From an uncultured Candidatus Peribacteria bacterium (lineage in GTDB: Bacteria > Patescibacteriota > Gracilibacteria > Peribacterales > Peribacteraceae), in assembly GCA_964611095.1 (NCBI GenBank), contig CAZSWJ010000001.1, positions 31,735 to 95,734 on the forward strand: 64,000 bases of DNA, in the 5' to 3' direction. Of this stretch, positions 51,584 through 55,060 are shown piece after piece. The notes under the pieces were generated by a model. That model saw nothing but the letters and a program-made list of their open reading frames with translations, searched no databases and was not told the origin of the DNA. Position numbers and translations under genes: made by a program. Numbering within the stretch: position 1 is the stretch's first letter; every line of letters starts with the position of its first letter.

Positions 51584-51695
51584 GCGAAAAAGCATCGACG
51601 TCCATTGAAAGAAAAGAGAGCTCATCAGAGGAAAACGCAGCTTTCCTTGATGCCATCATTCAAGATTTTCTCGAATGTACTTGAGCAATGGCATC

Positions 51696-51734
51696 AAAAA
51701 AACTCCCCGCTCTCTTCGGGGCGAAGAGAGCGGG
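51696..51734 (-). terminator. Intrinsic terminator (minus strand)
   Basis: 13-bp stem cccgctctcttcg / cgaagagagcggg followed by T7 on the minus strand. Confidence 0.8.
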
Positions 51735-51743
51735 ATACAAGCC

Positions 51744-52226
51744 TCACAAGCTTATTTCTCTCACGTGCGATGACGAGAGATCAGTCACGACCTTTGCGTA
51801 GCGGTCGAGGGCCGTGGTCTTTCGGCCGTGCTCCAAGAGTGAAACGCACGGCCGCACGAGATCGCTCCACAGTGCGCGGTACTCCTGCTCCGGCAAGCTG
51901 CACGCATCGATGCGTGCAATGATCGCGGGGGCGATTCGGTAGTACCGCTGCACGAGTGCGATGCCTCCGGGAGTCCGAACGACATACTCGTCGCGGAATT
52001 TCCGGAGCGTGCGGAGCTCATGGCAATCGTCGGGCAACCCGCGAGTGACGACGCATGCCGTCGTCAGAAAGCAACAGCCTGGAGGTTCCGCATACTCGTC
52101 CCAAACTCTCCCTGTCTGCCGACATATCGTGCAGGGGACGAGCACACTTTCTTGATGGCTTTCGGCTGGGGCTATGCGCACCCAACCTTTTCCATCGCAG
52201 TTCGAACATGGTACGTGCGCACCCAT
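51744..52226 (-). CDS. DnaJ-type zinc-finger (CxxCxGxG x2) protein with CFLTTAC...DDCxELxxLRxFRD module
   Basis: 160 aa. Strong SD AAGGAG 7 nt before the ATG. Paralog of 54021..54494. Confidence 0.75.
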   Translation of the reverse strand: MGAHVPCSNCDGKGWVRIAPAESHQESVLVPCTICRQTGRVWDEYAEPPGCCFLTTACVVTRGLPDDCHELRTLRKFRDEYVVRTPGGIALVQRYYRIAPAIIARIDACSLPEQEYRALWSDLVRPCVSLLEHGRKTTALDRYAKVVTDLSSSHVREISL

Positions 52227-52300
52227 AGTTCATCTCCTTCAACATAAGCCTGTGATGCCAAGCCCCTTGCGGGGAACTCCACGATGTAGAGTCAAATAGT

Positions 52301-52328
52301 AAAATACTATCAAATTTACTTAAGTCAA
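52301..52328 (-). promoter_or_regulatory. Candidate promoter TTGACT-N16-TATTTT
   Basis: On the minus strand upstream of the copy-A gene. Conserved in copy B. Confidence 0.4.
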
Positions 52329-52377
52329 TAAATCACATCATTGATACCGCTATTGATCATTTTTTTAAAAGCCGTCG

Positions 52378-52436
52378 CGTCAAAGCGACTCTTTTGATGG
52401 AAAGGAGAGTCCATGAGAGGAAAACGCAGTTTTCCT
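52378..52436. repeat. Partial third copy (~59 nt) of the cassette-end element
   Basis: Matches 53839-53898 with about 3 mismatches. It abuts the DKNYY gene stop codon. Confidence 0.75.
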
Positions 52437-53477
52437 TTACTCAGGCTTCTGCCAACTACTAGGGTCAAAGCCATCCGGACTAACGTTCGGGATCGGTTTT
52501 CCGAGATAAAAAACGTGTTTCTTATCTGCGGCAAAGTACTTTTGATCGGGTAGCAAGTGAAATGAATTGGTATCAGCATCAACAACAATAAAAGAATTGC
52601 ATGCCTTTCCTTGTTCGATGAACGCTGAATTTATTACATATACGCGATTTTTGTCTTTTGCATAATAATCATTCAGGGCTTGAAATGTTTTTGCATCCGC
52701 ATTGTTTATGCGGAGCTGATTACATATAACGCTAGTGTCGTCTTTTGCTAGAAAATTTGTGAACACTACTACTGACTTTGGTGCCAAAATTGTGAGCTTG
52801 CCCTCATAGTAGACATGCATTGAATCATGTGCCCATCCACCTCCTCCACGTATCGAGTTAGTTATTATCGTAAAGGTGTAGGGGTTTGCCTCTTTTAAAG
52901 GCAGATCATCAAAGTACACTTTTCTTAAATCCGTAGAATACCCTGCATTCAGAATTTTAAATTTTTTTGCGTTTGCCCCCCTTAAAATTCTGCCCTCAAA
53001 AAAAATATTTCGGGGGCTTATGCCATATCGCTCACTCTCTTTAAATTTTTTAGGATCGACGCCTCGCAACAGGTGCCAAGAAAAATAAACATGTTTTTTG
53101 TCTTTCGCATAGCTATCCATTAATTCGAAGCTATCTGGATCAGCTAAGGGCAAAATCTTATCACCAACATAAACGTTCTTTGAATCTTTAGCATAGAGAT
53201 TGCCATATTCAAGTACCTTGAAAGTCGCAGGATTTGCATGGGGTACGAGTGTGAGGCAATCCATTGTTGGATCTTTTGCAAGGCAAGAGCTCAAATAAAC
53301 CCTTCCATCAAATTTGTAAAATAAGTACCTATCGTCATAATAATTAAATGGAATATTAAGGGGGATTGGAAGCTCTTGCGCTACAATGCTGTTTGGCTTA
53401 AATGTGAGTAATAGTAGTGCCATTAACGCAGGAAGGACCCTAAGTTTCTTTGACGTTATGAAGTTCATGTAACGCAT
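52437..53477 (-). CDS. DKNYY-repeat family protein, low GC
   Basis: 346 aa. Repeated YAKDKxxVY motifs and a signal peptide. Strikingly AT-rich relative to the window. Confidence 0.75.
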   Translation of the reverse strand: MRYMNFITSKKLRVLPALMALLLLTFKPNSIVAQELPIPLNIPFNYYDDRYLFYKFDGRVYLSSCLAKDPTMDCLTLVPHANPATFKVLEYGNLYAKDSKNVYVGDKILPLADPDSFELMDSYAKDKKHVYFSWHLLRGVDPKKFKESERYGISPRNIFFEGRILRGANAKKFKILNAGYSTDLRKVYFDDLPLKEANPYTFTIITNSIRGGGGWAHDSMHVYYEGKLTILAPKSVVVFTNFLAKDDTSVICNQLRINNADAKTFQALNDYYAKDKNRVYVINSAFIEQGKACNSFIVVDADTNSFHLLPDQKYFAADKKHVFYLGKPIPNVSPDGFDPSSWQKPE

Positions 53478-53945
53478 ATTAGCTCGTATCAGATTGAATT
53501 AGGGACTGGATTTGGCCGCCGAAAATCTTATTGGCCATTTTTTGTTATACGTAAGCCAAAAAATGTGTTCTGTAGTTAAGTAGAACGATATTACAATAAG
53601 GGCTTATCTTATTGCAGGATCACTGTGTTGAAATTGAAATGTATATATAAAAAGCACAATCCTTATTTCCAATACCACTTGAGTGAGATTTATTGAGACG
53701 GTTCTCTTCATTTGCACTGAAATCCTTCACCCCCTTAAGAAGTTTAGTCAGGGTTGGATTATGAGAAGCCATATGTCGTGCGACGCCATCTACGAGACGG
53801 CAAAAAACTGTCGCTTGACGTGGGTCTCGTGGGCCCCACGTCAAAGCAACTCTTTTGATGGAAAGGAGAGTCCATCAGAGGAAAACGCAGTTTTCCTTGA
53901 TGCGATCATTCAAGATTTTCTCGAATGTACTTGGGCAATGGCATC

Positions 53946-53984
53946 AAAAAAACTCCCCGCTCTCTTCGAGGCGAAGAGAGCGGG
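53946..53984 (-). terminator. Intrinsic terminator (minus strand), copy B
   Basis: Same stem as copy A, followed by T7 on the minus strand. Confidence 0.8.
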
Positions 53985-54020
53985 ATAAAACCTCACAGGC
54001 TTCCTCCCTTAGTCGTGATA

Positions 54021-54494
54021 TCAGGAGAGATCAGTCACGACCTTTGCGTAGCGGTCGAGGGCCGTGGTCTTTCGGCCACGCTCCAAGAGTGAAACGCACG
54101 GCCGCACGAGATCTTTCCACAGTGCACGGTAGTCCTGCTCCGGCAGGTTGCCCGCATCGATGCGGGCAATGATCGCCGGCGCGATTCGGTAGTAGCTCTG
54201 GACGAGTGCGATGCCACCCGGAGTCCGAACGACGTACTCGTCGCGGAATTGCCGGAGAGTACGGAGTTCATGACAGTCGTCGGGCAACCCTCGAGCGATG
54301 ACACATGCCGTTGTCAGGAAGCACCAGCCTTCACTTTTGGCATACTCGTCCCAAACCTTCCCCGTCTGATGGCAGACAGTGCAGGGGACCTGGCGGTTTC
54401 CTGGATTGCTCCGATCTTCATCGCATGCAACTCCCCAGACCTCCCGCTTCCAGCCTGTTCCGTTGCAGAACGGACACTCTACATACGCTCCCAC
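54021..54494 (-). CDS. Paralogous zinc-finger / CFLTTAC-module protein
   Basis: GTG 54494 is preceded by AAGGAG at 6 nt. The N-terminus MGAYVECPFCNGTGW parallels copy A. The C-terminal two-thirds are nearly identical to copy A. Confidence 0.7.
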   Translation of the reverse strand: MGAYVECPFCNGTGWKREVWGVACDEDRSNPGNRQVPCTVCHQTGKVWDEYAKSEGWCFLTTACVIARGLPDDCHELRTLRQFRDEYVVRTPGGIALVQSYYRIAPAIIARIDAGNLPEQDYRALWKDLVRPCVSLLERGRKTTALDRYAKVVTDLS

Positions 54495-54568
54495 GATCGT
54501 CTCCTTAGAAGTTATGCCTGTGATGCAAAGCCCCTTTCGGGGAACTCCACGATGTAGAGTCAAATAGT

Positions 54569-54596
54569 AAAATACTATTAAATTTACTTAAGTCAA
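54569..54596 (-). promoter_or_regulatory. Candidate promoter TTGACT-N16-TATTTT (copy B)
   Basis: Conserved with 52301-52328. Confidence 0.4.
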
Positions 54597-54616
54597 TAAA
54601 TCACATCTTTAGGTTG

Positions 54617-54721
54617 TGGCGGAGCCAACGGGACAAAGAACCCTGCGACCTCTTCCGTGACAGGGAAGCGCGCCTACTTTCAATACCGCACTTCGTGCGG
54701 TGCCATCTGAGCTACGGCGAT
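54617..54721 (-). pseudogene. Degenerate tRNA-Asp-like copy with a hairpin insertion in the D region
   Basis: The anticodon arm CTTCCCTGTCACGGAAG and the 3' end TGGCTCCGCCA are retained. The acceptor 5' strand and T-arm are mutated. Inserted hairpin accgcac-gaa-gtgcggt. Confidence 0.6.
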
Positions 54722-54729
54722 GATGAATG

Positions 54730-54815
54730 TGGCGGAGCCAACGGGACTCGAACCCGCGACCTCTTCCGTGACAGGGAAGCGCTCTAACCATCCCGCGGCC
54801 GCGGGATACGGCTCC
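54730..54815 (-). pseudogene. tRNA-Asp copy whose D-stem 5' half is replaced by the palindrome TCCCGCGGCCGCGGGA
   Basis: Identical to the intact copy except that GCTCAGC is replaced by a 16-nt palindrome (54791-54806). The D-stem cannot form. Confidence 0.6.
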
Positions 54816-54849
54816 ACAGCAAATAGGCTAATAAAGTGTGTGATGAGAA

Positions 54850-54926
54850 TGGCGGAGCCAACGGGACTCGAACCCGCGACCTCTTCCGTGACAGGGAAGC
54901 GCTCTAACCAGCTGAGCTACGGCTCC
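54850..54926 (-). tRNA. tRNA-Asp (anticodon GTC), CCA encoded
   Basis: GGAGCCGTAGCTCAGCTGGTTAGAGCGCTTCCCTGTCACGGAAGAGGTCGCGGGTTCGAGTCCCGTTGGCTCCGCCA folds as a canonical cloverleaf. Confidence 0.9.
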
Positions 54927-55060
54927 ACATACTTGTTCGTCACTAAAACGGTGTCACAAAAGGATCAAGGCGGCTGCAGATCCTACCGCAGCCCAAGTAG
55001 CCTAGCAAATAAGCTCTTTCGTGACAATGCGCCGTGCCGTGGCTACCATGTGCCGCTTCG

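Follow-up and report, generated by a model that had tools for sequence, protein, structure and literature searches.

A tRNA-Asp gene with two hairpin-bearing pseudogene copies in a Candidatus Peribacteria genome, and related modules at other tRNA genes

The tRNA-Asp locus of an uncultured Candidatus Peribacteria bacterium (GenBank assembly GCA_964611095.1) contains three tRNA-Asp copies, all in one orientation on the minus strand of the stretch of DNA analyzed here (64,000 nucleotides, or nt, of contig CAZSWJ010000001.1, positions 31,735 to 95,734; hereafter the window). This array probably consists of a working tRNA-Asp gene (copy 1) and two pseudogene copies (copies 2 and 3) that carry tRNA-specific hairpin modules, with copies 1 and 2 forming a member or relic of a class of tRNA-nested cassettes that here lacks an open reading frame (ORF), and with the modules derived from families that specifically occupy tRNA-gene copies in this family of Peregrinibacteria (Candidate Phyla Radiation, CPR). 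Both hairpins have kin elsewhere, the type found in copy 2 is linked to tRNA genes and to small GIY-YIG nuclease genes, and the presence of a cassette is polymorphic within the genus. The genome (G000 in the following, with other genomes, loci, and contigs numbered with the prefixes G, L, and C) comprises 1.27 Mb in 39 contigs, is 98% complete, and has a GC content of approximately 59%.

The tRNA-Asp array and its hairpin modules

Copy 1 is the sole intact tRNA-Asp of the genome and is 100% identical to the tRNA-Asp of the relatives G002 and G009. The initial annotation of this stretch had described three copies in the same orientation, one of them canonical, and this is confirmed by sequence, Rfam, and ARAGORN. 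Its tandem arrangement also stands, although the order needs correction: the strand is minus, so that transcription runs from copy 1 to copy 3. For copy 2, the initial description was exact. This copy equals copy 1 over nt 1–9 and 17–77, and the sole difference is the replacement of GCTCAGC, which comprises the 5' strand of the D-stem and the start of the D-loop, by the 16-nt perfect palindrome TCCCGCGGCCGCGGGA. A search for this palindrome found a single occurrence in the whole genome. Outside the hairpin, copy 2 carries no substitutions in 70 nt, and therefore it would be either young or homogenized by gene conversion.

Copy 3 shares nt 25–77 with the tRNA-Asp gene. As had been noted before, its anticodon arm and 3' acceptor strand (with CCA) are intact, its acceptor and T arms are mutated, and it carries a hairpin insert. 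It retains GCCGTAGCTCAGATGG, after which the 26-nt insert CACCGCACGAAGTGCGGTATTGAAAG follows the D-loop GG (G18–G19) and lies between G19 and nt 21. The earlier claim that both hairpins sit at the same D-loop position has to be dropped, as the hairpin of copy 2 replaces nt 10–16. By sequence, the two hairpins belong to two different module families at adjacent positions. The 5' boundary of copy 3 moves to 54721 if ATC in place of GGA is counted, and this copy is interpreted as old and decaying.

Neither copy 2 nor copy 3 is a credible tRNA. Copy 2 scores 30.1 bits against Rfam RF00005 (threshold 29), and this match uses the second half of the palindrome as an acceptor strand and contains mismatches in both the acceptor stem and the D-stem. 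The 73-nt call of ARAGORN on copy 2 relies on the same mis-threading. Copy 3 has no Rfam match even at E<=10 and no ARAGORN call. Scoring with Infernal and ARAGORN thus did not yield the functional-tRNA scores that would have spoken against the initial annotation. A weak YrlA/Y-RNA-like Rfam match (18 bits versus 69) was rejected because it is due to its tRNA-like parts. For the RNA of copy 2, folding predicts a cloverleaf whose D-arm is replaced by an 8-bp hairpin (-41.4 kcal/mol, z = -2.15), and it is formally possible from this model that a tRNA-like RNA is made from copy 2. The folding energies of the hairpins as single sequences are not significant compared with GC-rich shuffles; therefore, support for the hairpins is taken from their recurrence and compensatory changes.

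The coordinates of the array and of the adjacent island are provided in Table 1. The spacer between copies 2 and 3 resembles the usual tRNA trailer/leader sequence of the family. Simple scans found no terminator within the array and one promoter-like site (54596–54569), which is located just past copy 3 and faces the next gene. Upstream of tRNA-Asp lies a non-coding stretch of approximately 90 nt (54927–55020) whose conservation extends beyond G000 to other genera and the metagenome contigs L284–L286. Its conserved core is GATCCTTTGTGACACCGTTTTRGTGAC, and it contains repeated GTGAC(A) motifs. This stretch could serve as a promoter or operator, either of the tRNA or of the divergent gene that encodes a protein of 306 amino acids (aa).

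Table 1. Features of the tRNA-Asp array and the island beside it (positions in the window).
Feature	Position	Strand	Basis
Copy 1, functional tRNA-Asp(GTC), CCA encoded	54850..54926	-	Rfam RF00005 68.7 bits and ARAGORN
Spacer between copies 1 and 2, 34 nt, TTCTCATCACACACTTTATTAGCCTATTTGCTGT	54816..54849	-	sequence
Copy 2, full-length pseudo-tRNA-Asp, 5' half of the D-arm exchanged for a hairpin	54730..54815	-	sequence comparison
P-type hairpin TCCCGC-GGCC-GCGGGA, perfect palindrome, replaces tRNA nt 10–16	54791..54806	.	sequence
Spacer between copies 2 and 3, 11 nt, CATTCATCATC	54719..54729	-	sequence
Copy 3, decayed pseudo-tRNA-Asp without nt 1–3	54617..54718	-	sequence comparison
D-loop module, CA + ACCGCAC / loop GAA / GTGCGGT (54701-54685) + tail ATTGAAAG	54677..54702	-	sequence
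Decayed T arm of copy 3, AGGGTTCTTTGTCCCG in place of GCGGGTTCGAGTCCCG	54629..54644	-	sequence
Adjacent variable island (context, not part of the array)	51604..54607	-	starts 10 nt after the CCA of copy 3

Hairpin modules at tRNA-gene copies and their link to small GIY-YIG genes

Comparison with relatives supports the initial annotation in that the hairpin types recur at tRNA genes in many of them, and the independent assemblies of these relatives show like structures. The D-arm hairpin occurs in tRNA-Asp copies of G001, G002, G011, and G057, as well as in those of three metagenome contigs. It is also present in 5' orphans (i.e., detached copies of the 5' part of a tRNA gene) of tRNA-Ala(CGC) in at least five genera and in copies of Ala(GGC), Ala(UGC), Arg, and fMet. 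The stem variants include TCCCGC/GCGGGA, TCCGCC/GGCGGA, CCCCGC/GCGGGG, and TCGGCC/GGCCGA; compensatory changes keep the pairing, and G18–G19 are retained after the hairpin. In G073 (L083/L084; contigs C9 and C42), at least four perfect tandem units of 53 nt are found upstream of tRNA-Ala(CGC), each composed of tRNA-Ala nt 1–9, TCCGCC-CA-GGCGGA, nt 17–26, and a spacer. These tandem arrays extend into contig ends, which indicates that such arrays break assemblies. One metagenome contig (ORMF012160080.1; L286, 355–470) has three successive tRNA-Asp 5' orphans upstream of the gene with a different module in each, namely TCGGCC-CA-GGCCGA, TCCGCC-TA-GGCGGA, and a CCACCTTCG...GGCGGG rod within the D-arm. 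In a metagenome-assembled genome (MAG) of Ferruginibacter sp. (Bacteroidota; L135, JBBAQB010000022.1), TCCGCC...GGCGGA hairpins occur twice in a tRNA-Met pseudo-copy, in the D-arm and after the anticodon loop. The design is therefore not confined to CPR.

Pattern searches yielded few further cases. The loose pattern GTATCCSS..SSGGRTG returned mostly coding-sequence noise in 121 genomes of the family, and only exact palindromic matches were linked to tRNA genes. When 185k species genomes were scanned for GTATCCGCC-N2-4-GGCGGATG, most of the 80 loci listed were chance matches, and the real cases among them are in Peregrinibacteria, in the Ferruginibacter tRNA-Met pseudo-copy, and possibly in Saccharibacteria. 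A DNA pattern scan of metagenomes yielded three real tRNA-Asp loci and four chance matches, and a metagenome search with the neighboring 306-aa protein found nothing.

The module of copy 3 also has relatives. Copy 3 has an orthologue with the same insert in G002 (L045, 7700–7822), and similar copies are present in G014 and L285. The G002 orthologue has an extra T-loop module, with a 35-nt CCACCT...GGCGGG hairpin at the site that matches the T arm of copy 3. Within G000, the insert fits the design of the D-loop inserts in eight 5' orphans of other tRNAs. This shared design includes CCYA, a paired stem of 6–7 bp, a GNA/GNRA loop, G(T), and a purine-rich tail. The stems are perfectly paired, and their sequence is unlike at each locus.

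These orphans were found by comparing the 43 predicted tRNAs of G000 with the genome, after the second Asp call had been put aside to leave 42 genes. Of the 42, 16 have a self-copy of 11 nt or more no farther than 400 nt away (4.8% in cross-tRNA controls). Nine have 5' orphans, which are exact copies of nt 1 to 13–19 located 76–103 nt upstream of their own gene (His, Ala-GGC, Arg-GCG, Arg-UCG, Lys-CUU, Val-UAC, Phe, Val-CAC, and Thr-UGU; contigs C2, C3, C5, C6, C10, and C18). The others are 3' parts located downstream, or full-length copies that carry inserts. In the downstream copy of Ala_tgc, the anticodon has decayed. Eight of the nine orphans have the D-loop-module design after the D-loop GG, and the ninth (Lys_ctt) has a different, CCACCT-type insert after nt 13. 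Beyond the inserts, the sequence resembles decayed tRNA nt 20–40 by eye, and therefore the orphans are truncated pseudo-copies rather than bare 19-mers. A small ORF that ends at the TAG of tRNA nt 8–10 in some orphans was rejected because its frame, compared by eye, is not conserved.

For the GIY-YIG domain, a Pfam search of G000 identified UvrC and three ORFs of 84–87 aa (PF01541, 46–55 bits). All three small ORFs are directly behind tRNA genes (Leu-GAG, Lys-UUU, and fMet). The fMet cassette, which lies outside the window (C11:45957-46035 and C6:1-371), consists of tRNA-fMet, 11 nt, and an ORF for an 86-aa GIY-YIG protein (C6:65-322). The stop codon of this ORF is inside a copied anticodon loop (CTCATAA), followed by the hairpin TCCCGC-ATCT-GCGGGA and then by tRNA nt 48–77. 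The stem of this hairpin is the same as that of copy 2. The background of such hairpins in G000 is low, with four strict hairpins per 1.27 Mb. Two of these four, the TCCCGC..GCGGGA hairpins at C18 and at C1:182.7k, were rejected as modules: they are ordinary RNA helices, the first being P3 of RNase P RNA and the second belonging to a 23S group I intron.

The association of these genes with tRNA genes holds throughout the family. Of the 61 family genomes searched, 60 contain one or both of two small GIY-YIG types. At tRNA-fMet in G000, and likewise in five further genera of the family, the ORF is followed by the TCCCGC/GCGGGA stem with varied loops. For each type, namely the C6 type (the fMet-type protein) and the C22 type (the Leu-GAG-type protein), the 30 best homologues were examined. 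Among the C6-type homologues, 27 have a same-orientation tRNA gene of one of many identities upstream of the ORF, most within approximately 300 nt. About 15 of the 30 C22-type homologues are behind tRNA genes, again of many identities. Exact TCCCGC-N4-GCGGGA, TCCGCC-N2-3-GGCGGA, or CCCCGC-N4-GCGGGG hairpins lie within 500 nt at 12 of the 30 C6-type loci, and all six of the closest C6-type homologues have the hairpin right after the stop codon, inside a partial tRNA-fMet copy. With the G000 GIY-YIG proteins as queries, the closest solved relatives in PDB are Slx1 and UPF0213 BH0048 (both weak), and NCBIfam gave no match to the small proteins. In about 15 of these 30 best loci, the C22-type cassette begins directly after the CCA of the tRNA with a conserved leader (L101–L128; G000 C22:6440-6920), which comprises TTCGACTCG, a variable hairpin, and CTCGCTCATGG(TAAACCA), and continues with ...GAGTCGAATGA...CTGAGCG...GTCGAAG. 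This leader may be a structured RNA or a recognition element.

Two loci, L259 (tRNA-Val) and L270 (tRNA-Ile), have exactly the architecture of copies 1 and 2 with the nuclease gene present. Both have an intact tRNA, a GIY-YIG ORF, and a full-length pseudo-tRNA with a D-arm hairpin, in which nt 1–9, TCCGCC-NN-GGCGGA, and nt 17 onward follow the same design as copy 2. In L255, the order is a hairpin-tagged orphan, the GIY-YIG gene, a second hairpin-tagged orphan, and tRNA-fMet. Based on L259, L270, and the fMet loci, we define a class of tRNA-nested GIY-YIG/hairpin cassettes by an intact tRNA immediately upstream in the same orientation, a pseudo-copy of that tRNA with an arm segment replaced by a (T/C)CCSSC-N2-6-GSSGG(A/G) hairpin, and a GIY-YIG ORF between the two. 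At the Asp array, copy 1 is 34 nt upstream of copy 2 and in the same orientation, and copy 2 carries such a hairpin. Between them is only the 34-nt spacer, at which L259 and L270 have a GIY-YIG gene of approximately 70 aa in the equivalent interval. A tblastn search with the three G000 GIY-YIG proteins found no similarity anywhere in the window. The layout of copies 1 and 2 is thus that of the cassette minus its ORF, and therefore the pair is interpreted as a non-autonomous member or relic and filed as an ORF-less derivative instead of a full member.

Variation of the locus and alternative explanations

Genome G002 belongs to the same genus as G000, and the proteins that flank the Asp locus are 80–96% identical between the two. 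In G002 (L291), tRNA-fMet is joined directly to the orthologous flank, which makes this an empty site for the fMet cassette. In G001, the fMet-type GIY-YIG gene is not found at E<=1e-5. The Asp locus itself also differs among these genomes. In G002, a 5' orphan carrying TCCCGC-AGAC-GCGGGG precedes the gene and copy 2 is missing downstream, and G001 has an upstream orphan that extends to the anticodon loop and a more decayed downstream copy. In G014, which belongs to another genus, tRNA-Asp is followed by a copy-3-like element. A Na/Ca-exchanger gene is located between tRNA-Asp and the copy 3 orthologue in G002 (L045, 6605–7822) and beyond copy 3 in G000 and G014. This rearrangement involves the tRNA repeats, and no simple path for it was found.

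The DNA past the last pseudo-copy differs among G000, G001, G002, and G014, and on this sequence comparison the Asp locus is a variable hotspot. In G000, the array borders the 51.6–54.6 kb region, as initially annotated. The genes of this island include two CxxCxGxG zinc-ribbon paralogues (54021–54563 and 51744–52226, both on the minus strand) with a low-GC DKNYY gene between them, and the GC content is 42% at 52–54 kb. Pfam searches with all ORFs of the island identified DKNYY (5e-51) and weak DnaJ_CXXCXGXG matches; no integrase, recombinase, or nuclease was found among them. A same-orientation repeat of tRNA-Asp of at least 9 nt was also sought at 51.5–54.6 kb, and none was present beyond one chance-level 9-mer. 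G002 lacks the island at this position, where G001 and G014 carry other cargo. The proposal in the initial annotation that the tRNA gene is an integration hotspot thus holds for the variable cargo in the four genomes, but the integrase and the far-end repeat are lacking, 16 of the 42 tRNAs are affected, and the classical integrase route that it implied is not supported. Similarly, its proposal of targeted insertion instead of random decay agrees with the recurrent, position-specific modules, but two different module types and positions are involved. Elsewhere in the genome (C2:88568-89048), an ORF for a RAYT/IS200-like Y1 transposase (PF01797, 34.8 bits) is followed by a long hairpin of the GGGTAGCG type. 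Because the hairpins that flank this transposase belong to another family, IS200/RAYT was not adopted as the mover of the tRNA modules.

Several observations weigh against the interpretation of the array as a cassette derivative with modules of tRNA-specific families. No nuclease ORF is present at the Asp locus or, by tblastn, within 1.5 kb of approximately 33 tRNA-Asp loci, and no nuclease is seen beside the D-loop module of copy 3 in G000. Either the ORF of the Asp locus was lost or it was never present. Moreover, G001 and G057 have tagged orphans yet lack a C6-type GIY-YIG gene at E<=1e-5. The hairpin copy is upstream of the working tRNA-Asp in most relatives and downstream in G000. The downstream position in G000 would need an extra exchange step, and no simple path from the upstream arrangement (G001 and G002) was found. 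The SRM motif that is associated with the Ssn nucleases discussed below, HGTCWYN(0-2)YYVSBRHN(0-5)WNVSBRGN(0-2)RNCYNB, matches neither the Asp array nor the fMet cassette (regular expression, both strands), and it is not enriched in the genome (seven matches versus 7–19 in shuffles). Finally, the loci were picked by pattern or by gene, and the counts above are not unbiased frequencies.

Three other explanations of the array were considered. The copies could be scars of classical att sites, left by repeated integration of elements with tyrosine or serine recombinases into tRNA-Asp, with the hairpins as parts of attP arms. That every copy ends exactly at CCA, that copy 3 shares its 3' portion from nt 25 onward with the gene, that variable cargo follows right after copy 3 in G000, G001, G002, and G014, and that integration-derived tRNA fragments are common (PMC9897764) would all fit this explanation. 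It is nonetheless unlikely, as no integrase or recombinase lies in or beside the island and no tRNA-Asp repeat at its far end. Copy 2 has a 5' acceptor strand, with no element in the 34 nt that separate it from copy 1 and only 11 nt to copy 3, and the 5' orphans at nine tRNAs of differing sequence are not a product of integration at the 3' end. It also argues against attP arms that copies of six different tRNAs (Asp, Ala, Arg, Val, Ile, and fMet) share this hairpin. Even less plausible, and indeed very improbable, is that the array results from neutral slippage duplication and decay, with palindromes made by chance or break repair, or from mis-assembly of metagenome reads. Fold-back repair can make a perfect loop-less palindrome, the folding energies are no better than those of GC-rich shuffles, and the assembly does break at tRNA repeats (e.g., at the end of C11 and the start of C6). 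However, many genera have the hairpin sequence at one and the same tRNA position, across independently made assemblies as well as metagenomes, and it is specifically tied to GIY-YIG genes; the insert of copy 3 is common to G002.

A further alternative is that copy 2, and perhaps copy 3, is a functional tRNA-like RNA that is co-transcribed with tRNA-Asp and processed, and that acts as a decoy, regulator, antidote, or guide. The perfect acceptor stem of copy 2, its preserved anticodon arm, T arm, and CCA, and its predicted cloverleaf are consistent with this possibility, as are the compensatory changes in the stems, the retention of G18–G19 after the hairpin, and the lack of a terminator between the copies. 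On the other hand, sister copies decay freely, as seen in the acceptor and T arms of copy 3, in the Ala_tgc copy with its decayed anticodon, and in orphans that break off at nt 19–38. Copy number and position vary among close relatives, with tandem amplification to at least four units in G073, and the pairing is equally expected of a hairpin that is recognized in single-stranded DNA. Taken together, a function as RNA seems rather unlikely, and the interpretation as a working gene with two module-bearing pseudogene copies is followed below.

Proposed mechanism and comparison with known systems

In the mechanism proposed for the cassettes, each would be bounded by two stretches of one tRNA sequence, one being the intact gene and the other the matching portion of the pseudo-copy. 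Both stretches would serve as homology arms on any genome that has the same tRNA. Recombination in which one arm engages the left portion of the recipient tRNA and the other arm its right portion would produce an intact tRNA, the insert, and a partial copy. Such tRNA-arm recombination would therefore explain the duplication, the survival of an essential gene, and the high identity of the arm on the hairpin side. The hairpin is located where the insert meets the right-hand arm, and by analogy with the Ssn enzymes that act on single-stranded DNA, it is probably the recognition site of a hairpin-specific nuclease. Cutting at the hairpin would start or stimulate the exchange. In G000, the only candidate for this enzyme is the 86-aa GIY-YIG protein encoded behind tRNA-fMet, whose gene precedes a hairpin with the stem of copy 2.

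If so, the cassettes may be a new kind of mobile element, in which a tRNA gene provides universal homology arms and a miniature Ssn-like GIY-YIG nuclease makes the recombinogenic end, with copy 2 mobilized in trans. This is a tentative proposal, for which we would not claim even odds. In a bolder variant, such copies would give rise to a tRNA-shaped transcript that binds or programs the nuclease. Should the proposal be true, the element would enter any genome that shares the tRNA without an integrase and while sparing the essential gene, and copy 2 would be non-autonomous and mobilized by the nuclease encoded behind tRNA-fMet. It would also mean that streamlined CPR genomes of approximately 1.2 Mb tolerate a whole population of miniature selfish cassettes, or what is left of them, at over one third of their tRNA genes. 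These points would bear on the evolution and rearrangement of tRNA loci in CPR lineages, on the spurious extra tRNAs that gene finders report there, and on the role of the very abundant and mostly uncharacterized single-domain GIY-YIG proteins. They would further bear on whether Ssn-type hairpin-specific nucleases for single-stranded DNA, which are of interest as tools, have natural targets in tRNA genes. The Asp locus provides a clean natural substrate for testing, as copies 1 and 2 differ by the hairpin alone. A system in which hairpins and GIY-YIG genes nest in tRNA genes is apparently undescribed; no publication was found that connects tRNA-gene copies, in CPR or any other group, with small GIY-YIG genes or with hairpins of this kind.

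Among the known systems, the Ssn enzymes are single-domain GIY-YIG proteins of approximately 90 aa that are flanked by hairpin repeats with a TCCCGCG...CGCGGGA core, and they cut single-stranded DNA only, beside the hairpin (Chenal et al., 2025, Nat Commun; PMC11893778). The genes described here similarly encode single-domain GIY-YIG proteins of approximately 85–95 aa with GC-rich hairpin repeats on either side. The NTS core of Ssn, TCCCGCG-MAV-GCGGGA, is nearly the same as TCCCGCG-GC-CGCGGGA of copy 2 and TCCCGC-ATCT-GCGGGA of the fMet hairpin, and the hairpin-gene-hairpin layout of Ssn is present in L255 and L258. In contrast, the hairpins here are inside tRNA-gene copies with the gene directly behind the tRNA, and there is no mention of tRNA in PMC11893778. 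Each genome here has two hairpin copies rather than hundreds, and the 5' GTCWY arm has no match. The shared part is the palindrome core, and Ssn-like cutting at these loci is an analogy that may hold.

The nearest homing enzyme of the GIY-YIG family that is linked to tRNA genes is SegB of phage T4, a free-standing endonuclease encoded in the T4 tRNA gene cluster (PMC2330249). Both cases involve a GIY-YIG gene among tRNA genes. SegB spreads by cutting the DNA of tRNA genes, followed by recombinational repair with co-conversion of the flanks, and this mode of spread would be common to the two. However, SegB is a phage gene with an extra DNA-binding part, and neither hairpin-tagged pseudo-tRNAs nor duplication of the target tRNA accompany it.

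Displaced tRNA-gene fragments were reportedly described by Williams in 2002 at the ends of integrated elements, where they mark att sites. Such fragments have also been documented more recently (van der Gulik et al., 2023; PMC9897764). They resemble the Asp array in that partial copies with 3' ends lie beside an intact gene and a variable region, and in being mis-called as tRNAs, as copy 2 is by ARAGORN. They differ in that no integrase is present here and the copies lie within tens of bases of the gene rather than kilobases away, and in that 5' orphans, full-length copies, and hairpin modules that replace tRNA arms are found.

Lastly, the modules can be compared with REP/RAYT sequences, elements derived from IS200/IS605, and the palindromic elements of Rickettsia. 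Those elements are small, non-coding hairpins that spread within a genome and are recognized as folded single-stranded DNA, as the modules here may be, and G000 also has a RAYT-like Y1 transposase. The modules described here differ from these elements in that they are limited to tRNA-gene copies and lie at fixed tRNA positions.

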